64,000 nucleotides of DNA from Kiritimatiellia bacterium. GTDB lineage: Bacteria; Verrucomicrobiota; Kiritimatiellia; RFP12; UBA1067. A model generated the notes under the pieces. That model was not told the origin of the DNA. It searched no databases and saw only the letters and a program-made list of their open reading frames with translations. The stretch is from positions 1,442-65,441 of the forward strand of contig JAFPUH010000042.1 of NCBI GenBank assembly GCA_017395505.1, written 5' to 3'. Each line of letters begins with the position of its first letter. Within the stretch, counting starts at the first letter, position 1. The position numbers and the translations under genes are program-made. Positions 5,591-64,000 of the stretch are shown here, piece by piece.

Positions 5591-6577
5591 TTACCGACCG
5601 ACGTTGACGACGGTGGAAGGATACTCGGTATACGCCGAGTCGAACTTGCACATCGCGACACCGGCGCTGAACGCCTCGACCACGCCTAGGAACGCTTCAG
5701 CATCGTACACGTTGCACTTGTCGTCATCGTCATACCACGCCCTCATGTCGAAAGGCTTGTCGGCCGGCGCATCCTCCGGGATGTACACGGGCGTCCAGCC
5801 GTAGGTCGCCTTGCTCTTGGCCGTCGAGACGGCGTTGCCGTTCGCTTCCGGACGGAGGCCGATGACGGCGACGCAATCATCATACGACGTGCCGACGATC
5901 TCGGAATCAAAGAGCACGATGTCATTGAATCCCATGAAGGTCGAGACGGCGGCGCGGACCTTCTCGATATCGGTCATGATGAAGCCGGTATCGTTCGCAG
6001 CACCCGCGAGCTTTTCGAGACGGTAGCGGATCTCCGGGATCTCGCAGAAGTCAAGCCAGGCGTTCGTCGTCATGACGAGGGTCGGCTTGCCGTACATGCG
6101 CAGCGACTTCGCCTTCTGCTGAAGGATCTTGACGACGGAGTGGTTGGTCAGGGTCGTCGCGGCGGCGTAGCGCGTCGCATTGAAGACCGTGGCGAACGCA
6201 TCGTCTTCGACCTTGTTCCAGGCGAGACGCTGGGAGAGCTCGGCGCCGGCATTGTCGGCGGCCTCGGCGGACGCATAGGCGGCGCCGTCATCCTCGAACA
6301 GCTTGCCGCGGCCTTCGTAGCGGCTGACGGACCATTTGACATCGACCATGCTGATGGCGGTGCCGCTGAGGGCCGTGCCGTTCGCGCGGGCCTTGGTGCC
6401 CTTGGATGCGGTGAGCCCGGCGGGAGCGACTGTCATTGTGCCGCTCTTTCCCGTGACGGGCATCAGCGGGAAGATCTTCGGGAATGCGTATCCCTTGACG
6501 TCCAGCTGAGAGATGGAGCCAATCGCCGCCAGATCGGGGCGGTCGGCCTTTTCAACTCTGAAAAAACGCTTTGCCAT
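5591..6577 (-). CDS. major capsid protein candidate (328 aa)
   Basis: Track ORF trimmed to the ATG at 6577 (MAKRFFRV) with an AAGGAA RBS. Lies directly after the protease-scaffold gene and is followed by a strong terminator. Size is typical of an HK97-fold capsid protein. Confidence 0.7.
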   Translation of the reverse strand: MAKRFFRVEKADRPDLAAIGSISQLDVKGYAFPKIFPLMPVTGKSGTMTVAPAGLTASKGTKARANGTALSGTAISMVDVKWSVSRYEGRGKLFEDDGAAYASAEAADNAGAELSQRLAWNKVEDDAFATVFNATRYAAATTLTNHSVVKILQQKAKSLRMYGKPTLVMTTNAWLDFCEIPEIRYRLEKLAGAANDTGFIMTDIEKVRAAVSTFMGFNDIVLFDSEIVGTSYDDCVAVIGLRPEANGNAVSTAKSKATYGWTPVYIPEDAPADKPFDMRAWYDDDDKCNVYDAEAFLGVVEAFSAGVAMCKFDSAYTEYPSTVVNVGR

Positions 6578-6602
6578 TTTATATGTTTCCTTTTTTGAGG
6601 TT

Positions 6603-9403: not shown

Positions 9404-9404
9404 A

Positions 9405-9680
9405 TCAGCACCTCGTTATCATGACCCGGCGGATGCCGGAGAGAGGAACGCCGTCGAGACGCTTTTGTATCTGGCTCACGCGGTCGGCGTAATCGACGCG
9501 AAGCTTCTGGAGCGTGCCGAGGTCGAGGCGGGTGTAGCTCTTGGAGCCGCCAGACGCCGAGATCGTCGCCGAGGCGGTTCCGTTGACGCTGATCTCGCGG
9601 ATCACGCGGTCAAGCTCACCGATCCAGACGGTGTACCTCGCCTTGTTCTTTATCAGGTTGTCTCTTTGTAGTGCGGTCAT
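9405..9680 (-). CDS. gpW-like head-tail joining protein (91 aa)
   Basis: Track ORF 9405-10070 trimmed to the ATG at 9680 (MTALQRDNL). Small ORF between terminase and portal, as in lambda W, with a C-terminal helical segment LQKLRVDYADRVSQIQKRL. Confidence 0.55.
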   Translation of the reverse strand: MTALQRDNLIKNKARYTVWIGELDRVIREISVNGTASATISASGGSKSYTRLDLGTLQKLRVDYADRVSQIQKRLDGVPLSGIRRVMITRC

Positions 9681-9735
9681 CACGCGCACTATCTTAGCAC
9701 AAAAAAAAGCCAATAATTCCGGCGAGGGCGAAATA

Positions 9736-9785
9736 GTGCCCGAATCGGGCGCTAGACGGTAGAAGTTGTGCCCGAATCGGGCGCT
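9736..9785. repeat. two identical 18-bp hairpin-forming repeats (GTGCCCGAATCGGGCGCT), 32-bp period
   Basis: Copies at 9736-9753 and 9768-9785. Each can fold as a 7-bp stem with a 3-nt loop on the plus strand, and the second is followed by TTTT. An A8/T8 run lies at 9701-9708. Confidence 0.9.
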
Positions 9786-9943
9786 TTTCCGTCTTGCATC
9801 CGATACTCGACGGTTTCCTTCCGGCCGCATCGACGGCATTTGACGTACTGGCGGCGGCGCCCGTTTACGATGCGCGACGACACCTTGAGCCAGGGGGTCC
9901 ATTGTCCGCATGACGGACACACCTCGATATACCGGATTATCAT
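9752..9943 (-). CDS. small zinc-ribbon protein (63 aa)
   Basis: CPSC...CRRC motif pair. Its ATG forms an ATGA overlap with the large terminase stop. The 3' end of the ORF is encoded by the hairpin repeat. Confidence 0.5.
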   Translation of the reverse strand: MIIRYIEVCPSCGQWTPWLKVSSRIVNGRRRQYVKCRRCGRKETVEYRMQDGKAPDSGTTSTV

Positions 9944-12363: not shown

Positions 12364-13051
12364 TGCCCTCGAAGACGGCCTCGACGCAGCGCCCGTTGCG
12401 ATAGCATCGGCAGTTGGGATTGGACGGCGAGCAGTATGCGCCGTGACGGTTCTCGCAGCCGACGCGCCATTCGTTCGCCTCGCGTATGCGGTCGCGCTCG
12501 CGTCCGTCGCGCTCGCGGGAGCGGGCAAGCGAAACGAGATCCGGATCGCGACCCTCGACGAATACGCGAAGCCCTGCGTTTCGGCTCCGGGGGAGCATGT
12601 TGACTGTCTCGGCCATGTTGAGGGCGATCCGGGCGAGATAGACGGCGCACTCCTTCGCGCCGGATGCGCAATTGCCGACGACCTTCTGCTTTGGGTTGGC
12701 GTATCCGATAAGGATGCGGACGCCGCCGGCGACATTCGTGACGTCGATGCGGCAGAATGCGACCTGATCGCGGTTCATGCGACGCTCAAGGCGGCGGTCC
12801 TGGGGCGAGTTGTTCGACGAGACATGGGCCTTGGATTCCGGGCGGCTTTCAAGCCACTTGGTGACGGCTGAGAGCTGGCGCAGAAATTCGATCGTCATGG
12901 AGTAGACGTTGAAGCCGTCATCCGATGCGCTCGTAAACGTCTGGCGAAAGCCGTTGGCCGCGCTGAAGTCGTTCGCGCGTTTGAACAGATCGACGAATGC
13001 CGCATATTCCGGCGAGACGTCCGCAAACGTTCCCTGCGTCTCGTATATCAT
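12356..13051 (-). CDS. hypothetical protein upstream of TerL (possible small terminase subunit; Cys-rich C-terminus)
   Basis: Trimmed to the ATG at 13051 with a strong AAAGGAG RBS. Any function is positional only, and no HTH was recognised. Confidence 0.6.
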   Translation of the reverse strand: MIYETQGTFADVSPEYAAFVDLFKRANDFSAANGFRQTFTSASDDGFNVYSMTIEFLRQLSAVTKWLESRPESKAHVSSNNSPQDRRLERRMNRDQVAFCRIDVTNVAGGVRILIGYANPKQKVVGNCASGAKECAVYLARIALNMAETVNMLPRSRNAGLRVFVEGRDPDLVSLARSRERDGRERDRIREANEWRVGCENRHGAYCSPSNPNCRCYRNGRCVEAVFEGND

Positions 13052-13567
13052 TCGGCTCCTTTCAAATTGGCGGACACCGAGCCCCGCGCTCTGGAAGGTA
13101 TTACCACGACCCGCTGACACGCTGGGCCCGGCGTCCATTGGCGGAGAAGCCGAGGCGCGGGCACTCTAGGGCCTACTACCGCCCACGCAAACACCGCACC
13201 CCGGCTTCGCCATTTGCGCCGGTCTCTCCCGGCTGTCACCACTATGGAAGTTCGCCTGTCGGTCTGGGCGCGTCGCGGGCTCCGCACGGTCGCCGGGCGG
13301 ATTGCGCCACGGCGATTCTTGTTTGCCCGATTCGTGTCTTCGACGATCCACGGACTAGTTGCGCTCTCCTGCCAGTGGTAGGAGTGTAGCGGGAGCGCTC
13401 TCACGGTTTTGCCATATCTCATAGTCGTTGACATGGGAGTTTCTGCCAGTATTTACAAGCCTCGCTCATGGCTCACGGCTTCACCCTACGCCTGCGCGCC
13501 GGCTTTGGGTTCCCCGTTTCGCGATCTATGGCTCGCGCCGCCAGTCTCGCCATCGGTTGTATTAAAG

Positions 13568-14083
13568 TCACTTCGCACCCCCTTCCTCGTAGGGCATCTG
13601 CGCCCATTTTAGTCGACAATCAACGCCCTGCTCGTATAGCGGGCAGCCGTATGGCTCGGCGTCAGTCGGAATCACATAGCACTCGTGGTGCGAGCAGTAA
13701 TTCTCGTGCATCCGTTCGGTCTGCTCTTCCGCCGTCCCCACATCGCAGTTACGGGGCGGCGCGGAGAGGGCGGCGCGAGCTAAATCATACGCCCCTGCCG
13801 TATCCTCAATGTTTGCCATCTCGTCGGTTTGCTCATATGCGCGGACGAACTTTATCAGCGCCTCGCGCATCTTCGCGCCGTTACCGTCCGATAACTCGCC
13901 CTTATACGCACGCATCGCGGCGGCAACCCTCGCGGCCTCTGCCGGATTGTCGGAGTCAAGGCGAAGCACAAAATACTTCTTGCCTTTCAGCGGCGTTCCG
14001 TCTGTATGGCGAATCTGGTATTTGTCATACATTTCCCAGCCATCAGGCAGCTGCGCCACATTGCTAGATTGTTTCTCGCTCAT
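13568..14083 (-). CDS. hypothetical phage protein (171 aa)
   Basis: ATG-initiated ORF with plausible composition. Last gene before the 516-bp ORF-free region. Confidence 0.6.
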   Translation of the reverse strand: MSEKQSSNVAQLPDGWEMYDKYQIRHTDGTPLKGKKYFVLRLDSDNPAEAARVAAAMRAYKGELSDGNGAKMREALIKFVRAYEQTDEMANIEDTAGAYDLARAALSAPPRNCDVGTAEEQTERMHENYCSHHECYVIPTDAEPYGCPLYEQGVDCRLKWAQMPYEEGGAK

Positions 14084-22128: not shown

Positions 22129-22204
22129 GGGGAAGTAGCTCAGTTGGTAGAGCATCACGTTCGCAACGTGGGGGTCGAGAGTTCGAATCTCTTCTTCTCC
22201 ACCA
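22129..22204 (+). tRNA. tRNA-Ala (anticodon CGC)
   Basis: Folded by hand. Acceptor GGGGAAG/CTTCTCC with the G3:U70 Ala identity pair, D-arm GCTC/GAGC, anticodon loop TTCGCAA, T-arm GAGAG-TTCGAAT-CTCTT, and an encoded ACCA. Confidence 0.9.
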
Positions 22205-52045: not shown

Positions 52046-52121
52046 TTCGCGCGTGGCGATTTGGTGTAGTGCCCCTTGCGGTGCGCAAGCAATAGAGTAC
52101 TGTTGCCAATTTAATTTTTGA

Positions 52122-52229
52122 TACCCTAGGGGTTTGCCATACCTAGGGGTAGCGGGTTGTTACCCCTAGGGGTAAGAGGCTGCTACCCGTAGGGGTGAGA
52201 GGCTGCTACCCGTAGGGGTAAGCGGCTGC
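52122..52229. repeat. five head-to-tail palindrome-containing repeats (consensus TACCCNTAGGGGTRAGMGGCTGC)
   Basis: Copies start at 52122, 52140, 52161, 52184 and 52207. The last three are 23-bp units. The core of copy 3 (TACCCCTAGGGGTA) is a perfect 14-bp palindrome. The array is preceded by an AT-rich patch at 52108-52121. Confidence 0.9.
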
Positions 52230-52281
52230 AGAGCGCCAGGGTGCCGCCCGTGAAACGTGAAAAAGCGAGACGGCGAGCGGG
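52230..52281. repeat. left arm of 52-bp perfect inverted repeat
   Basis: AGAGCGCCAGGGTGCCGCCCGTGAAACGTGAAAAAGCGAGACGGCGAGCGGG is the exact reverse complement of 52928-52979. Confidence 0.95.
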
Positions 52282-52385
52282 ACTAGTAGGATTTACGGGG
52301 GCTTTGTGATGGTTGTGGCGTCGAGGCGGGAATTTGGAGATTTGGGAATATCGAGCTGTTGGACAGGGCAAATCAAGTCAAGTTG

Positions 52386-52416
52386 GGAAAAATCAAAGCG
52401 CCTTCAACGGGCGCTT
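52386..52416. terminator. terminator-like hairpin, possibly bidirectional
   Basis: Stem AAGCGCC/GGCGCTT (52396-52402 with 52410-52416). An A-rich run lies upstream (a U tract on the minus strand) and GAATTGTCTTT lies downstream. Confidence 0.4.
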
Positions 52417-52452
52417 GAATTGTCTTTAAGAGCGGCTGAAAAGACCCTGAAA

Positions 52453-52559
52453 GCGAGGCGGGGCGACCTGGCGACGACCGGCCCGCACCGAGGCACCTCC
52501 CTACTACGGTCCATCCGATGGTGCGGATCGGGCGTCGTCAAAGGTCGCAGTCGCCTCGC
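52453..52559 (+). ncRNA. candidate structured RNA: 107-nt four-helix rod-like hairpin
   Basis: Helices: 52453-60 with 52552-59 (8 bp); 52463-68 with 52543-48 (6 bp); 52469-76 with 52533-40 (8 bp, including one G.U that is valid only on the plus strand); 52483-89 with 52520-26 (7 bp). No ORF. Identity unknown. Confidence 0.3.
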
Positions 52560-52724
52560 GGAGTCCGAAGGCCGGACATGCGCCGCAGAAACGCAAGGCG
52601 TTTCGGAGGGTAGTTTCGAGCGAAGCGAGAACCCGAAGGGCGCGCAAGCGACCGCGGCGAAGGTCGGCCGGAAAGACCAAACACAGTTTGGTCGTCAGGG
52701 CTGAGGTTGGAGTATCCCTGACAT

Positions 52725-52811
52725 GGAGGAATAAAAGACCCGGGGCGCGGCGCATGGGGTGAAATATCGTGAAAGACCCCATTGATCGTTACTGATTGCC
52801 GCGCCCCGGGT
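52725..52811 (-). terminator. large GC hairpin with minus-strand U tract (likely terminator of the phage-like operon)
   Basis: Perfect 14-bp stem (52738-52751 with 52798-52811) plus an inner 7-bp stem (52754-60 with 52776-82). The minus strand continues CUUUUAUU. Confidence 0.5.
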
Positions 52812-52927
52812 TAGATCGTCTTCAATTCAGGGCCTTTTCAACTCATAGCCAAACAACACCAGCTCATTCGCAGCTCTCCATCCGCTCTCTGACGCCTCGA
52901 CCATCACGAAGCCCCACGTCAAAAGAA

Positions 52928-52979
52928 CCCGCTCGCCGTCTCGCTTTTTCACGTTTCACGGGCGGCACCCTGGCGCTCT
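52928..52979. repeat. right arm of 52-bp perfect inverted repeat
   Basis: Exact reverse complement of 52230-52281. Lies 46 nt downstream of the stop of the 688-aa gene. Confidence 0.95.
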
Positions 52980-53024
52980 TTCGCGGACTCTGAGCGAAAG
53001 AAGCCCGCACCTCTGAAACAGTCG

Positions 53025-55091
53025 TCATCGGTTTAGCCTCAGCGTGTTGAAATTCCAGTCGATGCGGACAAGGGGCTGGTGGGATTGGATGCCGACGGCC
53101 ATATTCGGCACCGGGCGTGATGCGGAGCTGGTCGTGCCCAAATCGAGGTCGAAGCTGCCCAGTATGCCGTCGCCGGGCGCCGACGTGTAATGAATCGTTA
53201 TGGGGCCGTCGTCAGGCTCCTTTATCGCGTACCCGGTGACGGTGCCCGTGGCGTTGAAAACCACCTGCGGCGAAAAGCTGACGTATTGCTTCGCCTCGCT
53301 AATGGCGTTGGACAGCCGGTTTTGCAACGCCGTTAAGTCGGCGGGCCTGAACGGGTAGGCCGCTGCGAGCTCCGACCGCACCCTTTCGATGTTCTCGGTT
53401 TGCCATTGCAGGCAGAGTCCCTCGTAGCCTGACTGCGAGCTGGCCGTCCCATTTGCTGCGCGGACTTTCTTTATCTTGTCATAGTTTGAAAAGACATCGT
53501 CGATGGATTCGCCCTGAGTCTGCGTAAAAAGTCCGCACAGCTCAACCTCGCGAATGACGCCGGCCTGCCACGCCCTTGGTCCCGGGAAAAGTATGTTGCC
53601 GTTTGGTGCGGCAAGGATCGGGTTCCAATAGTCGTATTCGGCCGTGCCCTCTACAGTCACGGGAAGCGTTCCCGACGGCGGGGTGAGTTGAATGATGTCA
53701 AAGACATCGTCGGACGTGTCGTCGTCCGCTATGATTTCATATCTCAAAGTGAATGCGCCCCGATAGTCGGACCATTCGACGATAGGGGGCGAGATCGTAA
53801 ACGGCATCATGCCGCCTGTTGAATACCAGAGGTTGTAAAGATTTTTGATTTTGTCCTCGTTGGCATGTACCTGCAAAACAGGCACCGGGGGCGAATCGGT
53901 GTTGGCGACGCATTTGCCGCTTTGCACTCCAGCCACGACGACACCGTGCAAACTTTGGTTGGCTTTTGCCGTCGTCGTATCCTCGAAGGTCGTCGAGCCC
54001 CAAGATACTTGCACTTCCGGGTTGATGGCGGGACGTCCACTCGACCAATCGAGGGCGGAGGCAGGTATTGTGCCGCTAGCCGTTCCCGTCACCTTGTACT
54101 GTGTGATAGCCGCATAATTGTTGTGGTACGTGTCGCCAAAAGGCCAGTTGCCGTAAGTATATAGCCGATCCATTGCGGCAAAGGCTTGGCTGTATGCGGC
54201 GAGTCGCTCATACCAAAGGCGGCGGCTTTCGGAGCGGAGGATCGAGTAGTCGTACGATTTGCCAAAGGCTGCGGAAAGAATCGAACCGAAAGAGCCGAGC
54301 GGCGAAAGTTGATGCGCCAAAATAAATGCATCCCGCCAGCCTTCAGGCAGGCCGTCTTCCGAATAACTGTCAACATTCTGTAAAAAAGATAAAACTCCCT
54401 GCATCGAGGCCGGGGCGAGGTCTGGCGCAGTCGTGCGAAATATGCCGTCGTTTGCGCAGGCGTCGAGTGTGTGACCGCCCCTCCAGGAAGCGAGGGCGGA
54501 AATGACGTCTTGCGGCGCCACCCACGAAAAAGACGGTAACGTCGGCGTAGTGTCGCCAAGGGCGGACGATGAAAGCATCGATGATGACAGGGGTCTTGCA
54601 CTCCTGCCCGTTTGGGCTGTTGAATCGTGAATCTCCTGCACGTCGCACAGAAAGTTTGCGAAGTAGGGTGCGTTCCGAATCGGCGACCAAAGGAAGTTCT
54701 TGATCATCCATTCGAGCGCGGGGCGGTATATGCGGCGAGTCGAAAAAGCGCGGTCTTGCGGCGTCGAGCATTTGGCCGGATAAGGCAGATAGCCCGTCGC
54801 CGCCGTTGGATAGGCAAGGTCGTCGAAGGAGGCATACCTGACGCCTTGATTGACAGTTGAAAATACCGCATACTGCGGCGCGGGGACGCCCGAGATTATT
54901 GTGTACCAATAGTAAGCCCTCTCCCAATAGGCCTCCTCGATTGCGAGGAGCGCGGCGATCACGGTGGCGTCGATGCGGCGCGGCAGGCTGAAGGTCGCGT
55001 TGCCCGGAGTCTGCGCGGCGGTCACGGCGCTTGAGCCGATCCACGACGGGCGGCCGATGAAGATTCCGGGCTGTGGCGAAGAGATCGTCAT
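53025..55091 (-). CDS. large distal tail / host-recognition protein candidate (688 aa)
   Basis: Last gene of the tail module, in an ATGA overlap with the upstream gene. No recognised motif. Confidence 0.6.
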   Translation of the reverse strand: MTISSPQPGIFIGRPSWIGSSAVTAAQTPGNATFSLPRRIDATVIAALLAIEEAYWERAYYWYTIISGVPAPQYAVFSTVNQGVRYASFDDLAYPTAATGYLPYPAKCSTPQDRAFSTRRIYRPALEWMIKNFLWSPIRNAPYFANFLCDVQEIHDSTAQTGRSARPLSSSMLSSSALGDTTPTLPSFSWVAPQDVISALASWRGGHTLDACANDGIFRTTAPDLAPASMQGVLSFLQNVDSYSEDGLPEGWRDAFILAHQLSPLGSFGSILSAAFGKSYDYSILRSESRRLWYERLAAYSQAFAAMDRLYTYGNWPFGDTYHNNYAAITQYKVTGTASGTIPASALDWSSGRPAINPEVQVSWGSTTFEDTTTAKANQSLHGVVVAGVQSGKCVANTDSPPVPVLQVHANEDKIKNLYNLWYSTGGMMPFTISPPIVEWSDYRGAFTLRYEIIADDDTSDDVFDIIQLTPPSGTLPVTVEGTAEYDYWNPILAAPNGNILFPGPRAWQAGVIREVELCGLFTQTQGESIDDVFSNYDKIKKVRAANGTASSQSGYEGLCLQWQTENIERVRSELAAAYPFRPADLTALQNRLSNAISEAKQYVSFSPQVVFNATGTVTGYAIKEPDDGPITIHYTSAPGDGILGSFDLDLGTTSSASRPVPNMAVGIQSHQPLVRIDWNFNTLRLNR

Positions 55092-55651
55092 GACAGGTTC
55101 TCGAAGGCCTGGGCGTGGGGAATGTTCCTAAAGTCGCAGACGATGCCGCCGTTTGCGTCCAGCTGGTAGAGGGCTATCGTGACAAAGTTCGGATCGAGCG
55201 AGGCCGTGTGCATTAGGGCGAAAGTATCATATGCGGCGAGTGCGGCGGTGCCGTTCGAGGTCATGGGGGCTCGCAGCGCGATGAACTTGCCGTAATGCGT
55301 CGCGGGGTCGAGGGGGTTTGAGAAGCTCGTCGATTTGATGACCCCGCCGTCCACATAGTACTGATTGCTGAGATACTTTTTGGTTACGGTCTGGCCGCCC
55401 TCGGTCTCTTCGACCTCGACAAGCTCATAGCAGCCCGCGCCGGTGACGGCGTTCAACGCCAGGGCAGATGACCTTTGCCGCTTGTTTTCGGGGACGGGGA
55501 CGGAGCCGGTGCCGCCGAAGCCTGCGCGGAGGAGCCGACCAGGGGCAGAGAAAGGCAGCATCGAGTTGACGGCCTCGGTTATCGACTGGGCCCAGGAGGC
55601 GCGAGGCGGCTCGCCCTTCAACGGGGCTTGTATCTGACCTGTCTGGCTCAT
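55088..55651 (-). CDS. hypothetical tail protein (187 aa)
   Basis: Track ORF trimmed to the ATG at 55651 (MSQTGQIQ), in an ATGA overlap with the upstream stop. Confidence 0.6.
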   Translation of the reverse strand: MSQTGQIQAPLKGEPPRASWAQSITEAVNSMLPFSAPGRLLRAGFGGTGSVPVPENKRQRSSALALNAVTGAGCYELVEVEETEGGQTVTKKYLSNQYYVDGGVIKSTSFSNPLDPATHYGKFIALRAPMTSNGTAALAAYDTFALMHTASLDPNFVTIALYQLDANGGIVCDFRNIPHAQAFENLS

Positions 55652-56532
55652 GAGCTGCCGTTTGCTCCGCTGTTGACGTGTGGCATCGTCCAACGCTGGC
55701 CGTCTGGCCCGTAAAGCGCGACGTTCCATGGCGACATGCCAGAGGGGACCGAATCGAGACGGATGCCGAGCCAGGTTGTGACGCGCTTCCAGGTCTTGTC
55801 GGGCTGACGTGCGCACTCGTCAGGGCCTTGCAGCCACTGGTGGGCCGCTATGAAGCTTGTGAGACCGGGCGAGCCTGCACCGCTAGACGGTGATGGCGTG
55901 TCGATGTAGCCGCTCTTGGACTGGAGATCTGCGGGACACTGCGAATAGACCTTGGTGCAGACAAGCATCGGATAGAAGCGCATGACGCTCTCGATGCCTA
56001 GCTCAAAAAGCCTGCAGAGGTCGCAGGTCGCGTAGTACTGATCGCCAAGCTCCTCCGGAGAGGACAAGGTGCCGTCCGGCTTGGTGTAGTTGTAGCTGCT
56101 GGCGACTTCTGCGTTCGGTTCCTTCTGCCAGCATTCTATGAAGGCGCGGTTTGGCGTCGCTCCGCTCGTGCCGCAGTAGGCGAAAAGAGAGACGTCGTTT
56201 CGGACGGACTTTATCTCCCAAAACTCTTCGAGCGGAGTTTGGGTTGTGACTGTCGAGCCGCCCTCGCCCTCGCTTGTCGTTGTGTCGTTCTCGGAATAGG
56301 AGATCGAGAGGATGCCGCGATCTCCAGGGATCCTGCGAAGCTGGTAGCTCTTGACGATGACGGTTGCGCCGTCAAGAGTGAGAGCGACGCCGCTCTTCAG
56401 CGCCGTGGCGAAGGTCTTGAGGACATCGTAATCGTCGTTGAATGTGGCGACAAGTCCGGCGGCTCCGCTTTCGCTGAGGGTCTGTGAATCATCCTTCTGT
56501 CGGACGGCGGTTGTTGGGATTGTCACTGCCAT
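55648..56532 (-). CDS. distal tail protein candidate (294 aa)
   Basis: First gene after the tape measure, with a 10-nt overlap. Confidence 0.6.
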   Translation of the reverse strand: MAVTIPTTAVRQKDDSQTLSESGAAGLVATFNDDYDVLKTFATALKSGVALTLDGATVIVKSYQLRRIPGDRGILSISYSENDTTTSEGEGGSTVTTQTPLEEFWEIKSVRNDVSLFAYCGTSGATPNRAFIECWQKEPNAEVASSYNYTKPDGTLSSPEELGDQYYATCDLCRLFELGIESVMRFYPMLVCTKVYSQCPADLQSKSGYIDTPSPSSGAGSPGLTSFIAAHQWLQGPDECARQPDKTWKRVTTWLGIRLDSVPSGMSPWNVALYGPDGQRWTMPHVNSGANGSS

Positions 56533-57398
56533 GCTGCTGCTCCTGTCTTCTGTTCGATACGCTTCAGGACGTCCAGCTGCTCGCTGGCGAGGCGGCTCAT
56601 GTCCTCGACGACACCGCCGGCGCCCATGCCGCCAATTCTGGTGAGTGCGTCGGCTGCGCCGCCTGTGCGGTGCGGGATGTCCTTTTCAATGGTCTTTTCA
56701 AGGGCGCTTATTGCGGCTTCAAGCTGGTTTTGACGGCTGCGGTTCTCGGCGAGGGATTCGCGCTGGTGGTCGGCGTTGTCGTATTCGCCCTTTTCGGCGA
56801 AGGCGGAGACGGAGTCCTTTATCTTCGTCTCGGCCTCGCGGTACTTCTCGAGTTCCGACTTGAGAGCTGCGATCTGCTCGGCAGAGGTCTTGCCGTCAGG
56901 GCTTGTGAGCGATGAGAACTTTTCGCGCCAGGCTTTGGCTGACGAATAGCGTTGCTCTGCCTCGTCGAACGCCTTTGTGTAGGCGGACTGCTCGGCGTCC
57001 TTGTCGAGATATGTCTTGGCGAGGCCGATCGCTCCACCGGCGACGGCCCCCCAAGGGCCGCCCATCATGAAGCCGGCGCTTGCGCCCTGAATGGCGCTTG
57101 CGCCGTATTCGACGGCGTTGCGGGCTGCACCCTGCTGCATGTGTCCGGCGGCGTAGGAGGCGGCCAAGCCGACACCCATGCCGGCGAAGCCGCGCACCAT
57201 CTTCGTCATCGAGGAAGACGCCTTGCCGATGTCGCCATCAAAGCGGTCGGCGGCCTTGGCCGCCTTGTCGAGCGACTTGGAGAGCTGGCCAAGCCCAGCT
57301 TGGCCATCGATGCTTGATTCACCGCCCATGGCCTCGATTTTGCGCTTGGCCTTGTCGGTGTTGGCGTCGACTTCGATTGTGAGCTTTTTAGTCGCCAT
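56523..57398 (-). CDS. tail tape measure-like protein (291 aa, very short)
   Basis: Coiled-coil ends flanking a Gly/Ala-rich hydrophobic core (GFAGMGVGLAASYAAG...GGPWGAVAGGAIGLA). Follows the chaperone gene. Confidence 0.7.
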   Translation of the reverse strand: MATKKLTIEVDANTDKAKRKIEAMGGESSIDGQAGLGQLSKSLDKAAKAADRFDGDIGKASSSMTKMVRGFAGMGVGLAASYAAGHMQQGAARNAVEYGASAIQGASAGFMMGGPWGAVAGGAIGLAKTYLDKDAEQSAYTKAFDEAEQRYSSAKAWREKFSSLTSPDGKTSAEQIAALKSELEKYREAETKIKDSVSAFAEKGEYDNADHQRESLAENRSRQNQLEAAISALEKTIEKDIPHRTGGAADALTRIGGMGAGGVVEDMSRLASEQLDVLKRIEQKTGAAAWQ

Positions 57399-57926
57399 CG
57401 TCGATTTCCTCGATTACCTGGAGAGGGAAGATCTTGTTGGCCTCAAGGGCAGCGTTGCGGTGGAGGAGCGCGATGACCGAGAGCGGGGTTTCGTAGAACG
57501 CTTCGCGGTAGCTCCAGCCGAACGTCGAGCAGGCGTAGTGGAGGAGGTGGGCGATAGGGCCGTCACTTTTTTTTTACGCGACTCCTCTTCGTCATCTTCC
57601 GGGATGACGGCGGCTACCGTTCGCATCTGCGCCTCGGCTGCACGGCGAATGTCTGCAATTGCAGTCACCGGCAGAGTGTCGGCCCATTGCATCGCGAGGT
57701 CCAGGAGGTTGGCCCTGAAGATTTCGCGCGGGTCGTGCGTAAGGAGGTAGAGCGAGGGCAGGAGGTCAAGCACAGCTAGACCATCAGGGTTGGAGCTCTT
57801 AAGCAGCGGCGAGTCGATGTGTTCGAGGGCCGCCCACATGGCAAGCGTCATGGGGCGGACGTCACCGATCGGCAGCGGCATTGCCGCAGCTACGGCCTTC
57901 TTCGGGTTGGCTCTGCGCTTCTTCAT
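57388..57926 (-). CDS. tail assembly chaperone requiring a -1 shift (or +1 A) at an A9 run; the zero frame alone gives 57414-57926
   Basis: ATG at 57926 (MKKRRANPKK). After KKK (A9, 57567-57575) the zero-frame tail is S/T/R/P-rich and looks non-protein-like. The -1 frame reads SDGPIAHLLHYACSTFGWSYREAFYETPLSVIALLHRNAALEANKIFPLQVIEEIDDGD and stops at 57388, overlapping the tape-measure ATG. Confidence 0.6.
57567..57575 (-). other. A9 slippery homopolymer (T9 on plus strand)
   Basis: Read directly from the sequence: gtcactttttttttacgcg. Confidence 0.95.
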
Positions 57927-57928
57927 CG

Positions 57929-58312
57929 TCACGAGGTGGCGAGGACCGTTTCCTGGGTGCACAGCGAGGAGTTGTGGGCCTCGACGGTCCAGCGCTTGAG
58001 GCCGTTGTAGCTGCCGGCACGCTGGATGGAGTCGACGATGTAGTGGGTGCTGCCCAAAAGCAGGTCGGTGTAGCTTATCGGATTCGCTGAGACGGCTTCG
58101 GTACCGGCGGCCTGCGGAGCAGGGCCGCGCACGGTGAGGCTGATGGACTTCAGGGTGTCGTAGCGGATCTCCTTGACGCGGCGGTTGAACTGGTCGTAGA
58201 CGATTTCGCGCTGCGGGGTGGAAGTGTCGGTGATCGACTCGATGACGTAGCCTGTAAGGGCGTCGACGATGCCGTATTCACCGGCGGTGGTGGTTGGGGC
58301 GCTGCCTGCCAT
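57929..58312 (-). CDS. tail tube protein candidate (127 aa)
   Basis: AAAGGAA RBS. Lies immediately upstream of the chaperone gene. Confidence 0.55.
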   Translation of the reverse strand: MAGSAPTTTAGEYGIVDALTGYVIESITDTSTPQREIVYDQFNRRVKEIRYDTLKSISLTVRGPAPQAAGTEAVSANPISYTDLLLGSTHYIVDSIQRAGSYNGLKRWTVEAHNSSLCTQETVLATS

Positions 58313-58328
58313 GTTGTTTGTTCCTTTC

Positions 58329-58745
58329 TTAGTTCAGGATTATCGATGTTTCGAAAGCGACGGTCGCGGTGATGACCTGGGATTGCCTGTCAATGGTCTG
58401 CGTGGTCTCCTGCCAACAGAACTGCTCGCCGTCCAGGGCGTGCATGACGATCTCGGCGGCGTCGAGGGCGCGGATGACGCCCTGCTGCCTGCCGGCGAGC
58501 GGGGCGAGCTCCGAGCACTGCACGAGAAGCCTGGTGTCGGACGGTATGCCGGTGGCCGCACAGCCGTTGCGCTTCATGTTCGGCGTGACGACGACAACGG
58601 CGACCTTGCCGGCGCTTATCCAGGCCTTTGCCTCTTCGTAGACGGTGCGGGTATCTTCGGCAAAGGCTTTGCAGCCGCCGTCGACAAGATCTTGAACGGC
58701 GTTCAAGGCGTCTTTAATCTTTGTTTGAAGCTCAATGATTTTCAT
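58329..58745 (-). CDS. tail completion/terminator candidate (138 aa)
   Basis: Positional call only: it lies upstream of the tube gene. Confidence 0.5.
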   Translation of the reverse strand: MKIIELQTKIKDALNAVQDLVDGGCKAFAEDTRTVYEEAKAWISAGKVAVVVVTPNMKRNGCAATGIPSDTRLLVQCSELAPLAGRQQGVIRALDAAEIVMHALDGEQFCWQETTQTIDRQSQVITATVAFETSIILN

Positions 58746-58752
58746 TTGACGG

Positions 58753-58782
58753 TTGCCTTTTCAAAGTGGGTTGTGGTATAAT
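58753..58782 (+). promoter_or_regulatory. sigma70-like promoter (TTGCCT-18-TATAAT, extended TG) antisense to the MuF-like gene
   Basis: -35 at 58753-58758 and TGGTATAAT at 58774-58782. It points into the 3' end of the minus-strand gene. Confidence 0.35.
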
Positions 58783-58848
58783 GTGCGGTGTCCGAGAGTT
58801 CAGCTGGTGGTAGAGACCGTAAAACCGGGGTATGCGTGCATCGCTCCA

Positions 58849-59955
58849 TCAGGCTCCTCCCGGAATTTTTGTTTTATAGAAACTCACGATGCCGATGTCT
58901 GGATCGACTATGAGATTCAGAACGCCACCGTCGAAAGTATTGAACTCAAGATGGCTGCGGCCATGCTTTGCCGGAGAAACCTTGTCAGGCTTGCGCCACA
59001 TTGCCGGCAGGAGTTCGAAATCGCCTTTTGTCAGAGGGATATTGCGGCGGTCGTGCTCCTCAGCGCCGACGTGAATGTGGAGATGGTCCTTGAAGATGTT
59101 GTGAGATATCGAGAGGATGCGGCCATCGTAGCCGCGACCAAGCTTTGCTCTTCTTACTTTTCCGGAAAGGACTTCTTGTATGAGCTCTCCGCGCCAATGA
59201 GCCACATTGCCGTCGAACCGTATCTGGTCGCCGAACGCTTCACGCAGGCGGTCGGCCTCCGGCGAGTTGTCGGCGATTGGCAGCTCTGCCTGAAGATTGC
59301 CGTTGAACGAAGGCGCGGACGCGCCATTAGCAGAACCCGGTTCCGGCAGCGGGACGCCGAGGGCGAGACACTCAGAGCGAGAGACCGAAAATATATCCAT
59401 GCCGGAATTGTAGTCGAACGGCGGATAAGGCAGGCCGAATCGGGAGATGCGCGTCCAGATGGGGTCGGTCTTCGGTGCGATCATCCGGCCCTGGTAGAGA
59501 GTGCCGCCTTTCTGCTGCCAGATGGCGGGCCAGTTGCGAGGCATCTTGCGCGGCTCGGCGCGGAGGAGTTCGTAGGCCGGGAACGCGGCGAGGGCGCCAT
59601 CGGTCGTCGCCTGAAGATGCTGCACGTAGCCCTGGGCCATCTTGCGGTTGGTATCGAAGATGAGATCAAGGCGGGCCTTTGTCATGAGGTCCTTTATTGT
59701 GCCGCGATTCTCTCCGGCATCATAGCTGCCATGAGTGAGCATTTCGCGGACAGCCTTACGGAACTCGCTTTGCGAAAGGTTGCCGGAAAGAGACTCGGCT
59801 ATCCGGCTACGCATGGCATCAAGGAACCGCACCTCCGCTACGCGGGCGGAGAAGAAAGCGCGGTCGCGCAGTCCAGCCTGGATCGAGTTCCATTGTTCGG
59901 AGCCGATGTCTGAAGTAACGAGAGCCTTTTGGAGTATCTTTTCAGCTGCAGTCAT
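58849..59955 (-). CDS. MuF-like head morphogenesis protein with C-terminal nuclease-like (PBECR-type) domain
   Basis: The ATG at 59955 forms an ATGA overlap with the upstream stop (alternative ATG at 59970). MuF-like core (TKARLDLIFDTNRKMAQGY...LPYPPFDYNSG). The C-terminal ~110 aa (ILSISHNIFKDHLHIHVGAEEHDRRNIPLTKGDFELLPAMWRKPDKV...) resembles phage barnase/EndoU/colicin-RelE-like toxin domains. Confidence 0.65.
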   Translation of the reverse strand: MTAAEKILQKALVTSDIGSEQWNSIQAGLRDRAFFSARVAEVRFLDAMRSRIAESLSGNLSQSEFRKAVREMLTHGSYDAGENRGTIKDLMTKARLDLIFDTNRKMAQGYVQHLQATTDGALAAFPAYELLRAEPRKMPRNWPAIWQQKGGTLYQGRMIAPKTDPIWTRISRFGLPYPPFDYNSGMDIFSVSRSECLALGVPLPEPGSANGASAPSFNGNLQAELPIADNSPEADRLREAFGDQIRFDGNVAHWRGELIQEVLSGKVRRAKLGRGYDGRILSISHNIFKDHLHIHVGAEEHDRRNIPLTKGDFELLPAMWRKPDKVSPAKHGRSHLEFNTFDGGVLNLIVDPDIGIVSFYKTKIPGGA

Positions 59956-60518
59956 GATGCGATCTCCCATATTGCTGCCATGGCGACTTCAGACAGCTGC
60001 TCGTCGGTAGGAAGCACAGTAGGGTCGGCGTGGATTGTGGCCTTTGGAATCAGGAGCCAAAGCAGCTCTCCGCGCTCATTGTCCTTAATGAAGCCGTGGC
60101 TTGAGTTCTTGGGCCAGAAGATCGAATATTCGCCCTCGTTTGCGAGCGCTCCAGCTTCGCTCGGACAGATGCCGGCGACAGAAGGATCGATCGGGATTGC
60201 GAGAGCCTTTTTCTTGGGATAGACTGTGCCACCGAAGTAGTGCAGCGCGACGCCTTGTCCGGGAGCTCGCGGGTCGTTGGATTCCGCGCCTGCAGAGATG
60301 ACGGCTTTCAGTCCACGCTGCGAATCAACCCTGACGGTTTCTGCCGCCTTATGCCAGAAGCCGGACGGCGGGATGCCGAGGCGGCTTGGGGCAGAGCGCA
60401 GGCCGCGATTGGTGAAATGGCGACGGACAAAATCGCGCACGGCTTCAGCCATCGCCGAACCCGCTTTGGATTCGTCGAGGATGGTGAAGTCGGCCGGGAT
60501 CTTGAACGTCAGTTTCAT
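59952..60518 (-). CDS. virion morphogenesis-like protein (Mu G / HK97 gp10-like, 188 aa)
   Basis: The HYFGGTVYPKKKALAIP segment resembles that family. This is a weak call. Confidence 0.5.
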   Translation of the reverse strand: MKLTFKIPADFTILDESKAGSAMAEAVRDFVRRHFTNRGLRSAPSRLGIPPSGFWHKAAETVRVDSQRGLKAVISAGAESNDPRAPGQGVALHYFGGTVYPKKKALAIPIDPSVAGICPSEAGALANEGEYSIFWPKNSSHGFIKDNERGELLWLLIPKATIHADPTVLPTDEQLSEVAMAAIWEIAS

Positions 60519-60533
60519 TTGGCGGGAGTGGCC

Positions 60534-61631
60534 TTACGGTGAAAACTGATGGTGCGTTGAAAAGCCACGGCGCTGCATTTCGGCCCAGTCTTTGTCGCGA
60601 ATGGAAAGGATGAGGTCATCATCCAGCCATTCCGGGTAGATCTTCACGCCCCAGACATTCTGGCGGATATACTTGCCGGTGAGATTTTTCAGGCTGCCAC
60701 CCGCGAAGAGGCGGAACTCGATGCGCGAGTGCCTGGCGAAGCAGCGGTCGGCGCGCGGCCGCCACAACTCCTTCGTGCTGGTGGAGTCCTCGATCGGCGA
60801 GGGGTCCACCGCCGCAAATGTGAGCGCGTTAAGTTCGACCGCCGCGCCTCCCTGAACGATAGCGCCGCGCATCACGACCATGCGCCACTCGTTCGTGAGC
60901 GACCTTTCAGGCGCGCCCCAAAAATCAGTGCTGGTCGAAATGTCAAAAAGACTCATGTCATGGAATTGGCGAAGCGGCGACTCGGCGGCGCAAAGATACA
61001 CTTCGGCGTCGGCATCAGCCGCCGCGACAGTGATGGAGCGGTCGGACGAAACACAAAGAAAGACGACCTGCTGCATTTCGTTTGATGCCGCAATATTCCG
61101 CTCCTCGCCGCCGACCGTGACGGTGAGGTCCGTGTCGGTGATTATGTTGAGAGTATAGCAGCCGTACTGCCAATCATCCCGAGCCGCAAAGTCCTCCGGC
61201 ATATCATAGCTAGCCGGCAGGCAGTTCGCGGACCATGTGCCCGTCGAAGAGAGCGGGAGCGTGGCGCCCAGGCCGCCACGCTCGACTGGCCAGTAGGCGT
61301 CGCCGAGGAGATCGGGAGAGTAGTCGCCGCCCTCGGAGACGTAAAGCGCAGGCTCAGTCGAAATCATCGCCGACACAAACGGCATGAGGTTGGTGCCGAC
61401 GCTAATCCAGTCCACACACGTCCAGAAGACGGTTGTGAACGACGGCACCGGGCTGGGCAGCCCGAACGTCACGAGCGGCAGGGTGCCACTCTCCTCGCGG
61501 CGGTTGAATGACATAAGGGAGCTGTCGCCGTATTTCGGCAGGGCGAGGAGATCCACCATTTGGGCCGCGACGGCGGAATTGGCGGACAATACGACGGCGG
61601 CGAGTACCGCCAGATTACTTGATTTTCGCAT
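60534..61631 (-). CDS. exported hypothetical protein (365 aa)
   Basis: Trimmed to the ATG at 61631. Signal peptide MRKSSNLAVLAAVVLSANSAVA-AQ. Confidence 0.6.
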   Translation of the reverse strand: MRKSSNLAVLAAVVLSANSAVAAQMVDLLALPKYGDSSLMSFNRREESGTLPLVTFGLPSPVPSFTTVFWTCVDWISVGTNLMPFVSAMISTEPALYVSEGGDYSPDLLGDAYWPVERGGLGATLPLSSTGTWSANCLPASYDMPEDFAARDDWQYGCYTLNIITDTDLTVTVGGEERNIAASNEMQQVVFLCVSSDRSITVAAADADAEVYLCAAESPLRQFHDMSLFDISTSTDFWGAPERSLTNEWRMVVMRGAIVQGGAAVELNALTFAAVDPSPIEDSTSTKELWRPRADRCFARHSRIEFRLFAGGSLKNLTGKYIRQNVWGVKIYPEWLDDDLILSIRDKDWAEMQRRGFSTHHQFSP

Positions 61632-62142
61632 TTTCGAGAATCTCCTGAACTTGAGCATCGGTGAGGCCGAGGGCCGCCTGAAGCGCGGCGCGGCCCTGGA
61701 CAAAGGCAGGGTCGTCTTCGGCGAAATCCTGCGCGGCGAGGTATTCGTCGTAGAGATCCTGATCGATGATCCATTGCTTGACTTGCGGCCATACGCCGAG
61801 CTCCTTCAGGGCGACGACGACGCGCATTTTCGAATAGGTGGCGGGCTTGACCTTTCGCCAGGCCTTCTCGTAAGATTCATACGCTAAGCCGCTGTCGCGG
61901 TTGAAGGTGTAGCCGGTCACCTTCCAGTACTCATTCGAGACGGCGATGCCAGGCGGCGGCAGCTCGGCGAGCTCGTACCATCCGCAAGCGACGCGCGCTG
62001 CGGTGGGGAGTGCGTGGAGGCCGACGACGACAGCGCCGGTCTCAAGGTTGCGGCCCTGCGAAGGCAGGGCACGGGGCCGGGAGCCGACGGTCGAGGCGTC
62101 CGGCGAAAAAATGAAAAGAGCTGCGAGGATAAGCGAGTGCAT
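61615..62142 (-). CDS. hypothetical protein after tail fibre (possible fibre assembly factor, 175 aa)
   Basis: Trimmed to the ATG at 62142 (MHSLILAALFIF), 5 nt after the fibre stop. Confidence 0.5.
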   Translation of the reverse strand: MHSLILAALFIFSPDASTVGSRPRALPSQGRNLETGAVVVGLHALPTAARVACGWYELAELPPPGIAVSNEYWKVTGYTFNRDSGLAYESYEKAWRKVKPATYSKMRVVVALKELGVWPQVKQWIIDQDLYDEYLAAQDFAEDDPAFVQGRAALQAALGLTDAQVQEILENAKIK

Positions 62143-62146
62143 GACA

Positions 62147-63793
62147 TTACTCCCTGATGATGGCGATCGGATTGACATACAGCGTGCCGGCGTATGGCCA
62201 GGCGACGCAAAGAGCGGTGTTTGTCGGCCAGGTGCCATAGCCGCAATATTCGACGTTCGAGGCGACCGTGTAGGCGCCCGAAGGCTGCAAGACGACAAAG
62301 GTCTGGACACCGTCATTCCAGCCTGAGAGATCGGCGACGAGATTGCCGCCGGACGGGATAGAAACGGTCTCCTTGCCTGTGTGGCGGGCAATCACGGCGA
62401 CGGTGTTGGTCGCGCTCCAGGAAAAGCCGGAAATTGCCTCTTGCACGAACGCGGTTGTCGCAACCTTCGTAGAGTCGTCGCCAGCCGTCGGCGTCGGCGC
62501 GGTAGGCGTTCCTGTGAACGCCGGCGACGCGAGAGGGGCGACTGCCGTCTTTGCAATTCCGCTGTCCACTGGGTTGCCGTTGACGTCGAGCGCGGCGAGG
62601 TTGCCGGCGTATCCGTGTCCGGCGGTGAGGGCGAGAACGCCACTTTGCGATGGAAAGTATATCGTATTATTCATCACGCTCATCACTGGCGTTAGCATCG
62701 CATCCCAAAACTCAAATACTAACTGCCCGCTCCAAAAAGACAGGTTTCCGTATAGGTTTTGGTTGCCGCTGTTGCCGATCGCCCCCACATCGCTTGCGGT
62801 GAGCGTGACTGCGCCAGTCTTGTTGTTGACGCTCGAAACGGGAGCGGTCTGCAGCGCCGAGTCCGCCTTATCGAGCGACGCCTGCACGTCCTGCGCGAGA
62901 GCCGACCTCGCTATGTTCGTCGCGGGCGCAAGCGACGCAAGCTCGGAGCGTCTGACAATGCCGGAAGATGATGTTGAATCCCAAAGATAGTCGGTGTTGA
63001 CACCGTTGCGCTTGACGGCGACGCCCGAATAGGCGTAGGTGGTCGTATTGTTGTTGTTCAGCGTCGAAGCCGTCACCTGAACGCCGCCGGCGGGCGAAGA
63101 TCCAGACCCCTGGGCGAGAATCTTGATGGTGCGGCCCGCATTACCTTGAACGCCTAGCCAGTTCTCAGAGTTTGGAGCGACTTCATTCAAGGTGTATGAA
63201 GGCTTCGATGACGCCTTCGCCCAGTCCGGTACATTTGGATCCGTCTCGGTGTAGGACTGCAGGGCGGTCATAGCCTTGTTCGAAACGACGGAATAATTGC
63301 CGGGAGCGGGGGCGAGTTCGACAATCTTTGCGTCGGTCTCGGCCTTGGTGTAGTAGGGTGCGTTCGATACGTCGATTGTGTCGAAGTCGAGGGTTGCGAC
63401 CGGCGGGGCGATGGTGTTGGGCGTAAAGCCGGGAGAGTCGAGCAGGCGCAATAGGCCGTTGGCGGTGTAGTTGACACCTTCAGGATCCGTGGCGCGGATG
63501 AAAAAGCGGTAGGAGGCCGCGCCGACGTCGTTGGACGGTGCGAACGTAAGGCCGTCCGCCTGCCACCAGGTGCGGTCCATTCCGTTCGTCTGGTAGTAGA
63601 GGACGGATGATGTGACGTTGGAGAGCGCGCCCGACCATACAGGGTTGAACCTGACTGTCTCGCCGTGATAGGCGGTGAAGGTCTCGGCGTGAGCTTGAGG
63701 CGAAGTTATACGCCATTCAAAGGTCTTTGCAGAGGCGGTCGCGGACGCGACCATGGCAAAACCCAAGAGGACATATTTCGTTAAGGTCTTCAT
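62147..63793 (-). CDS. tail fibre protein with N-terminal signal peptide (548 aa)
   Basis: Classic side-tail-fibre motifs (VNNKTGAVTLTASDVGA and SPAFTGTPTAPTPTAGDDSTKVATTAFV). N-terminus MKTLTKYVLLGFAMVASATASA-K. Confidence 0.75.
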   Translation of the reverse strand: MKTLTKYVLLGFAMVASATASAKTFEWRITSPQAHAETFTAYHGETVRFNPVWSGALSNVTSSVLYYQTNGMDRTWWQADGLTFAPSNDVGAASYRFFIRATDPEGVNYTANGLLRLLDSPGFTPNTIAPPVATLDFDTIDVSNAPYYTKAETDAKIVELAPAPGNYSVVSNKAMTALQSYTETDPNVPDWAKASSKPSYTLNEVAPNSENWLGVQGNAGRTIKILAQGSGSSPAGGVQVTASTLNNNNTTTYAYSGVAVKRNGVNTDYLWDSTSSSGIVRRSELASLAPATNIARSALAQDVQASLDKADSALQTAPVSSVNNKTGAVTLTASDVGAIGNSGNQNLYGNLSFWSGQLVFEFWDAMLTPVMSVMNNTIYFPSQSGVLALTAGHGYAGNLAALDVNGNPVDSGIAKTAVAPLASPAFTGTPTAPTPTAGDDSTKVATTAFVQEAISGFSWSATNTVAVIARHTGKETVSIPSGGNLVADLSGWNDGVQTFVVLQPSGAYTVASNVEYCGYGTWPTNTALCVAWPYAGTLYVNPIAIIRE

Positions 63794-64000
63794 CAGTCTA
63801 GGAGCCTTTGAGGGGTTGCGTCTGCGAAAGCGGGCGCGGAGGCCGGACGGGCCGAGTCGTCGGTCGCGCCTTCCTCGGCGTAGCTTTCCGGGGTGATTGC
63901 GCCCTGGGAGATCTTCTCGAAGAGCGATTCGGCCTTTTCGAGGGCCTTGCGGCGGTCTTCAGAAAGAGGAACGCCGATGCGGTTGAGGACCTTTGCGGCT
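63793..64000 (-). CDS. C-terminal 68 codons of an upstream gene (partial)
   Basis: Hand translation ...LEKAESLFEKISQGAITPESYAEEG...PQRLLD, with the stop TGA at 63793-63795 overlapping the fibre ATG. Open to the window edge. Confidence 0.45.
   Translation of the reverse strand, partial: AAKVLNRIGVPLSEDRRKALEKAESLFEKISQGAITPESYAEEGATDDSARPASAPAFADATPQRLLD

Follow-up and report, generated by a model that had tools for sequence, protein, structure and literature searches.

A Geneless Inverted-Repeat Region as the Putative Late End of a Mu-Like Prophage in Rumen Kiritimatiellia

INTRODUCTION

Transposable phages are defined by their ends. The ends of phage Mu contain several roughly 22-bp transposase sites, one of which is inverted, and at the Mu right end (attR), as in B3, D3112, BcepMu, hankyphage, and Leptospira prophages, a noncoding terminal region lies beside the last late gene. 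Here, we describe a 64,000-nucleotide (nt) stretch of DNA from a Kiritimatiellia bacterium (contig JAFPUH010000042.1, positions 1,442 to 65,441), which is referred to throughout as the window. It contains a 750-bp module without genes, at 52230 to 52979, that is bounded by a perfect 52-bp inverted repeat. We consider it reasonably probable that this module serves as the noncoding recognition region at the late end of a transposable prophage of the Mu type. The prophage, in a rumen Kiritimatiellia bacterium, would be about 29.5 kb in length and would extend from window position 52230 to approximately 81765 in window-equivalent coordinates.

The resemblance of this prophage to Mu-like phages lies in its Mu-type head genes, its MuB-like ATPase, and its insertion at unrelated host loci, as well as in a short inverted motif common to both ends and, possibly, in a 5-bp target duplication. 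Nevertheless, as read from its sequence, the prophage end departs from the Mu model in several respects. Its terminal 52 bp are repeated in inverted orientation 580 to 650 bp inward, as an internal twin that evolves in concert with the terminus; its terminal bases are noncanonical; and no DDE transposase is recognizable. Most of the detailed biochemistry of transposable phages was worked out with Mu. Some of these studies exist for Mu alone (PMC8705779). A literature search did not find Kiritimatiellia linked to Mu-like phages.

THE MODULE AND ITS INVERTED REPEAT

A preliminary description of this locus reported a perfect inverted repeat that continues inward in degenerate form, in a module free of open reading frames (ORFs) between convergent genes, and these observations have held up. 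The repeat search recovered the same arms at 52230 to 52281 (distal, or outer) and 52928 to 52979 (proximal, or inner), which match at 52/52 positions, are 100% complementary, and are separated by 646 nt. When up to three mismatches are allowed, the 52-nt arm has just two copies in the window, with none expected in 100 shuffles. Directly inside the 52-bp arms is a nonhomologous patch of 12 to 17 nt, past which the two sides realign (GGGGCTTYGTGATGG...) to about 135 nt. The distal inner arm (52282 to 52371) and the proximal inner arm (52838 to 52927) are identical at 64 of 90 positions in the window, in agreement with arms of about 135 bp overall, and the distal one is nearly invariant across lineages from approximately 52330.

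The module does not appear to encode protein. Its longest ORFs reach 132 amino acids (aa), are rich in Arg, Ser, Pro, and Ala, and have the composition expected of G+C-rich noncoding DNA. These ORFs are disrupted in variants of the module by indels of 77, 5, 8, and 7 nt, none of which is a multiple of three, and no gene is called in the region in the public contigs that carry it. Rfam, which had been proposed as a means of identifying the module, gave nothing at gathering thresholds, and its matches at E values of up to 10 were eukaryotic microRNA and long noncoding RNA noise. ARAGORN detected no tRNA or tmRNA in the module region, and blastn of this region against phage and plasmid collections returned no match. 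The sole RNA gene detected in the window, a tRNA-Ala(CGC) gene at 22129 to 22204, is unrelated to the module.

Both flanking genes point into the module. On the host side, the plus strand carries yebC, argB, argD, gltX, and a gene for an MTS-family methyltransferase that ends at 52045; homologs of this methyltransferase are named Kiritimatiellia, and the sample names indicate rumen studies. On the phage side is a minus-strand operon with almost no Pfam matches (53025 to 64000, running past the window end), the last gene of which encodes a 688-aa protein and ends at 53025. The window sequence recurs, identical at every base, in three independent public assemblies.

MODULE VARIANTS AND THE PHAGE-HOST BOUNDARY

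The search for variants of the module began with the longest spurious ORF (132 aa), which was compared with a representative protein library and led to two short contigs, L023 and L024, that represent one module variant (about 93% identical). A pattern built from bases shared by the window and L023 was used to scan metagenomes, which yielded L025, a complete module on a 10.4-kb contig, and L026, a complete module at the edge of the examined part of a 29,686-nt scaffold; an earlier metagenome pattern that included two lineage-specific bases gave no match, and neither did a homolog search with a chimeric six-frame translation of the module. Three further variants (L023/L024, L025, and L026), all from other metagenomes, are therefore available for comparison. 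The two copies from the JGI metagenomes are both joined to the same 17-nt phage flank. The arm core and redesigned pattern had no match in 185,579 species-representative genomes (GTDB) or in IMG/VR. The IMG/VR scans, which covered a pair of arm patterns as well as the end motif and the 688-aa protein, were all without a match, as was a scan of genome contigs with this protein.

Comparison of these loci locates the boundary between phage and host. On the phage side, the window, L025, and L026 have TCGCTCAGAGTCCGCGA in common ahead of the proximal arm. This sequence belongs to the short minus-strand spacer that separates this arm from the last late gene (52980 to 53024) and is kept in all lineages, even though the last genes are unrelated and encode proteins of 688, 794, and 236 aa. 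Farther upstream, a 291-aa phage protein is 93% identical between the window and L025. Beyond the distal arm, by contrast, the three contexts share nothing. In the window, this arm is followed by a 23-bp repeat array and the methyltransferase gene; in L025, it is followed by a promoter region and, 200 nt past the outer arm, a host gene for an anaerobic sulfatase maturase-like (radical-SAM) protein; and the examined sequence of L026 stops 7 nt outside the distal arm. The phage is thus inserted at unrelated host sites in the window and in L025. Moreover, host relatives in which the methyltransferase is 88 to 96% identical carry no insert: their homology to the window ends about 25 to 55 nt past the methyltransferase stop codon, and the methyltransferase gene is directly followed by other genes. 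Because the DNA past the distal arm differs while the phage flank inside is the same, these loci show that the module belongs to the phage and moves with it to different host loci. By the same argument, the outer edge of the distal arm, position 52230, coincides with the phage-host boundary, and we infer that it is the late-end terminus of the prophage. The module is best placed as the terminal segment of a Mu-like prophage rather than as a free-standing element between two genes.

A protein-guided search for the 688-aa protein identified five homologs, two of which are informative about this boundary. The closest (87% identical), encoded on contig L005, shares 42 nt past the stop codon with the window, and its contig ends 4 nt before the arm. 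On contig L006, where the homolog is 81% identical, a tyrosine integrase and an attP site with a tRNA 3' fragment are found where the module would be. Lysogeny modules have therefore been swapped within this phage group, and the prophage in the window, which has no integrase domain, differs accordingly from a prophage of the integrase type. At the remaining loci, further genes follow the last gene. L006 also has, at 6485 to 13584, a reverse transcriptase gene (RVT_1) beside a gene for a DUF6273 protein, possibly a diversity-generating retroelement.

Two other explanations for the boundary were tried and dropped. An integrase attachment junction at approximately 52983, which had been suggested by the end of the L005 contig, was abandoned when the module turned up, together with the phage, at a different locus. 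The use of a tRNA, tmRNA, or other RNA gene as an attachment site was rejected too, as ARAGORN and Rfam find none here.

Sequence past the window was taken from contig L027, which overlaps the window exactly, with L027 position 1 corresponding to window position 63541. This contig contains a candidate for the opposite, early end. The 20-nt motif TCAAGTCAAGTTGGGAAAAA, on the plus strand at 52373 to 52392, has an exact, inverted copy at L027 18177 to 18196, where zero would be expected by chance. At both prophage ends, the motif lies just outside an outward-facing terminator-like hairpin, and it is present in every module variant, on the distal side only, the proximal inner arm being without it. 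It is a candidate subterminal transposase-binding site. In addition, the 5-nt sequence GCTGC occurs at window positions 52225 to 52229 and again at L027 18226 to 18230. If GCTGC is the target duplication, the early terminus lies at L027 18225 (window-equivalent 81765), and the prophage measures 29,536 bp, which is close to the 29,686 nt of the L026 scaffold. No direct repeat surrounds the module itself, for which the 5-nt flanks in three lineages are GCTGC/TTCGC, GCGAT/GCTGA, and GACTT/TTCGC; the absence of a target-site duplication around the module, first remarked on for the window, extends to two other lineages.

GENE CONTENT OF THE PROPHAGE

Within the window, PHROG matches in the late operon are to a tail fiber and to a minor head or DNA pilot protein. 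Beyond the window end, the operon holds Terminase_6N, Portal_Mu, and Mu-like_Pro_N genes, which are of the Mu type for head formation and packaging. Past these head genes is a switch region with an HTH_3 gene and then a plus-strand early operon, which encodes small proteins, an HTH_17 protein, a 716-aa protein, a 373-aa AAA_22/TniB protein, a DUF3164 protein, and an HD-domain protein. Host genes (radical SAM and Memo/AMMECR1) resume from L027 18369.

The transposition genes lie about 23 to 27 kb beyond the module, at window-equivalent 75.8 to 79.5 kb. The earlier statement that no invertase and no transposase accompany the module is therefore correct inside the window only. The assignment is clearest for the 373-aa protein, which matches AAA_22 (2e-13), TniB (8e-7), and phrog_296, annotated as "DNA transposition protein" (4e-19). 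Its tblastn matches are to transposition protein B from Mu-like phages, those of Mannheimia, Burkholderia, and Klebsiella among them, and the members of its protein cluster are named "DNA transposition AAA+ family ATPase." Between this MuB-like ATPase and the HTH_17 protein is the 716-aa protein, encoded at L027 12266 to 14416 (window-equivalent 75806 to 77956), which is possibly a very divergent or new transposase. An AlphaFold model of this protein was poor and unusable (pLDDT 43), and the one 90%-identity cluster examined holds just close homologs (93% or more). No integrase, invertase, or recombinase domain was found among the prophage genes.

CONCERTED EVOLUTION OF THE ARMS

The four module variants make it possible to compare the two arms of each genome with those of other lineages. 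Read from the outer end, the arm begins AGAGCGCCAGGGTGCCGCCCGTG... in the window, AGAGCGCCCGGGTGCCGGTCGTG... in L026, and TGACTGGCCGGGTGCCGGTCGTG... in L025, and the arm-to-arm match within these genomes is 52/52, 51/52, and 52/52, respectively. Between lineages, only 45 to 49 of the 52 positions match. In the four-sequence alignment, seven arm pairs have changed on both sides and none has been broken; the single unmirrored change is a transition. Over the next 90 nt, the pattern is reversed: the two sides within a genome agree at 59 to 64 of 90 positions, while the same side agrees between lineages at 76 to 90 of 90. These alignments show concerted evolution that is limited to exactly 52 nt in every lineage. 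Unrelated DNA borders the concerted block on its outer side, and the nonhomologous patch borders it on its inner side.

The most variable part of the entire module is the outer 9 nt of the arms (52230 to 52238 and 52971 to 52979), which read AGAGCGCCA, AGAGCGCCC, or TGACTGGCC, account for most of the arm differences, and are always mirrored. Both ends of contig L023, as well as the end of L005, fall at this block or no more than about 4 nt from it, which suggests that lineages differing in the outer 9 nt may coexist within single samples. The breaking of contigs at the arms also has a practical consequence: this boundary will be miscalled by prophage finders and assemblers.

Seven mirrored differences in sequences that are otherwise 90 to 95% identical argue for arm-to-arm copying rather than stepwise compensatory mutation. 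The preliminary description had proposed that the outer 52 bp are under selection or gene conversion, a view with which concerted evolution limited to those 52 nt in four variants agrees. Plastid inverted repeats and the palindromes of sex chromosomes likewise combine identity within a genome, difference between lineages, and sharp boundaries; these large conversion palindromes, however, span kilobases, whereas the arms here are 52 bp long, lie in a phage terminus, and would be copied by a mechanism that we can only deduce from their pattern of change. If their identity results from gene conversion only, the arms are a clean, small-scale case of concerted evolution bounded by heterology.

A PROBABLE LATE END OF A TRANSPOSABLE PROPHAGE

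We favor the late-end reading because of the terminal location of the module, its linkage to a MuB-like ATPase, the integrase and attP that stand in for it in a related phage, the inverted motif found at both ends, and the concerted arms. Transposase sites, which were among the options raised in the preliminary description, are accordingly the best-supported reading of the repeat. Under this reading, the distal arm and the subterminal motif would be the sites that are bound and cut by the phage transposase, a functional counterpart of Mu attR. The proximal arm would be an internal inverted copy of the same sites that helps to assemble or regulate the end complex, for which it might provide extra binding sites, a DNA loop across 600 bp, or cis-immunity. 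The interior may mainly provide two terminators that face outward and so insulate the late operon against the host DNA. The arms could be kept identical by arm-to-arm copying, either through gene conversion or through intrastrand pairing with mismatch correction, and the nonhomologous DNA on either side might confine this copying to 52 bp.

Several observations weigh against this interpretation. First, the 716-aa protein, which occupies the position of a transposase, has no match in Pfam, PHROGs, NCBIfam, PDB sequences, or 50,697 phage genomes. Second, the early terminus, and with it the 29,536-bp span, is placed by the candidate duplication. Two copies of GCTGC fall within the 300 nt that must contain the early end, the second of them at L027 18321, 95 nt on. 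The sequence also belongs to the neighboring 23-bp repeat unit, and for both reasons it is weak evidence for a duplication. In addition, no same-strain empty site and no second insertion of an identical phage were found. Third, the early end lacks the 52-bp arm sequence, and so the arms are not simply "the" end sequence. Fourth, Mu and B3-like phages are described as having TG...CA termini (PMC8705779), while the arms of the window and L026 begin with AG, as does the putative early end (AG...CT termini); a TG start is seen in the L025 arm only. Exceptions to TG-CA are known, such as the TA-TA ends of Leptospira prophages (PMC8705779). Finally, the last 1.2 kb of Mu contains gin, com, and mom and no inverted repeat of 14 nt or longer, with genes up to about 115 bp from the terminus in the Mu sequence that we examined, whereas here about 750 bp are geneless. 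The length of the predicted prophage differs as well, known transposable phages being 36 to 39 kb (PMC8705779) compared with 29.5 kb here. No account of a transposable-phage end built in this fashion was found in the literature searched.

A more radical version of the late end gives the arms a direct part in a noncanonical form of transposition. The end would fold back, the orphan 716-aa protein would recognize or need the paired arms, and the internal arm would template the terminal 52 bp. Such a structure-dependent, self-templating end would account for the finding that every lineage copies one arm onto the other, the hypervariable outer 9 nt included. We give this version a small chance of being correct. 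If it is true, one end of a transposable phage would here be defined and maintained in a manner that is new. On the broader late-end reading, functional arms would constitute a compact, testable site pair for the study of phage end recognition, and the module could provide a natural mini-element for genetic tools in rumen bacteria of the Planctomycetes-Verrucomicrobia-Chlamydiae (PVC) group.

ALTERNATIVE EXPLANATIONS

The module could instead be a hitchhiking mini-transposon, that is, a 750-bp nonautonomous element that is moved by the phage transposase and has taken up residence at the terminus, so that its outer end is now that of the phage. Like miniature inverted-repeat transposable elements (MITEs) and other nonautonomous transposons, it has no ORF, long and perfect terminal inverted repeats (52 bp, with the outer edges facing apart), and similarity that decays inward. 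It is also present in phages with unrelated adjacent genes, and its interior tolerates large indels in the manner of a passenger. Unlike a MITE, however, the module is present as one copy in the 64-kb window and holds a constant position in the phage. No direct repeat surrounds it in any of the three lineages, the arm core has no copy in the 185,579 species-representative genomes, and both metagenome copies are attached to the same 17-nt phage flank, with no solo copies. We therefore regard a mini-transposon as unlikely. An ordinary MITE, which the preliminary description had kept in view as a competing identity, would be dispersed and flanked by target-site duplications, and neither dispersed copies nor such duplications were found.

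A structured RNA has to be considered too, either as a long 3' untranslated region or as a separate noncoding RNA of the late operon, in which the arms would pair as an RNase III-type stem. The interior alone, with the arms removed, folds far better than shuffled sequences (z = -5.7). Across variants, hairpin stems are conserved while loops and tips change, as in the loop of the hairpin at 52396 to 52416 and the tip of hairpin B, a long imperfect hairpin (52448 to 52560) with a conserved base and a tip that is swapped for AT-rich sequence in L025. One pair in hairpin B changes from A-T through A.C/G.U to G-C, and seven arm pairs show mirrored changes. Several results speak against RNA as the main role of the module. 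Rfam gives no match, even at an E value of 10. On the late-operon strand, two terminator-like hairpins lie between the arms, at 52811 to 52738 (followed by CUUUUAUU) and 52416 to 52396 (followed by UUGAUUUUU), so that the arms could be cotranscribed by read-through only. The former has a 14-bp G+C stem and a structured loop of 46 nt; it hardly varies between lineages and is probably the late-operon terminator. The latter would function on both strands, but better on the minus strand; it faces outward, and its stem is conserved while its loop is variable. Consensus folds of the plus- and minus-strand alignments reach -311 and -295 kcal/mol, respectively, with no strand-specific excess of G.U pairs. 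An assignment of the RNA strand by G.U pairs was therefore dropped, and DNA-level structure is as likely as RNA structure. The mirrored arm differences, in sequences that are 90 to 95% identical, fit copying better than compensation. Moreover, a 77-nt block within the module is dispensable, given that L025 and L026 do without it. We find a structured RNA quite unlikely overall; of the possibilities raised earlier, transposase sites have thus fared better than a long RNA stem, in view of the hairpins between the arms and the nearly equal folding of the strands.

The same 77-nt block, at 52579 to 52655, is carried by the window and L023, and exactly this stretch is missing from L025 and L026. 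It consists of short hairpins with GAAG-, GCAA-, and GAAA-type loops and looks like the insertion or deletion of a small structured cassette. The stretch from 52690 to 52739 in the window is only about 40% identical to the variants.

Very unlikely, in our estimate, is a neutral scar left by a duplication and inversion at the prophage edge. The central part of the module is variable and tolerant of indels, which is in keeping with a functionless remnant. The length and perfection of the arms, however, are kept in three lineages that differ at 3 to 7 arm positions; almost no variation is seen in the large hairpin or in the 100 nt of subterminal sequence on the distal side; and the module keeps its place with respect to the last gene even in lineages where another gene has taken over that position. 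A scar was the other competing identity named in the preliminary description, and it is at odds with the conservation of the module in relatives.

Least probable of all is an invertible switch, in which recombination between the arms would flip the 646-bp interior, move the motif and terminators toward or away from the terminus, and so toggle transposition or read-through. The module resembles the invertible promoters (invertons) of gut bacteria in being an intergenic segment of a few hundred base pairs with perfect inverted repeats on either side, and its host likewise comes from the gut or rumen. Identical inverted arms are a requirement of such a system, the inner sides are functionally unequal in that only the distal one has the motif shared with the other end, and contigs break at the arms. 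Against a switch, the module has the same orientation in the three lineages with visible flanks and in all three separate assemblies of the window; no invertase or integrase domain is found among the prophage genes; no sigma-70-like promoter was found inside the module; and both flanking genes point into it. As for the contig breaks, they are accounted for by repeat length greater than k, together with variation in the outer 9 nt.

SEQUENCES FLANKING THE PROPHAGE

Window positions 52120 to 52229 hold an array of five 23-bp units in tandem (TACCCnTAGGGGTrAGnGGCTGC); every unit has a palindromic core. The array is preceded by an AT-rich stretch and ends exactly at the phage terminus. The motif of this array was found nowhere else in the window or in contig L012, nor past the arm in L025 and L026, nor in the host relatives. 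The idea that the units are sites for the phage transposase was dropped, as L025 and L026 have no array past the arm. The units might be binding sites for a host protein, or they might belong to a small repeat RNA.

The locus downstream of the methyltransferase gene (window positions 52046 to 52110) is hypervariable among close relatives, as evidenced by contigs L015 to L022. A cluster of 4HBT thioesterase and ACP genes follows the methyltransferase gene in L015 to L019. In L021, a promoter and a tRNA-Val gene are found, with the contig ending inside the tRNA, and in L022, a promoter and another ORF take this place. The window retains just a degenerate copy of the promoter region.

At the opposite end, an AT-rich stretch of about 140 nt (L027 18226 to 18368, window-equivalent 81766 to 81908) extends from the putative early terminus to the stop codon of the radical-SAM gene. 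It contains a good promoter-like site on the minus strand, TTGAAA-17-TAATAT (L027 18292 to 18264), that is directed toward the phage. If this stretch is host DNA, the promoter-like site would have faced the 23-bp array before insertion.

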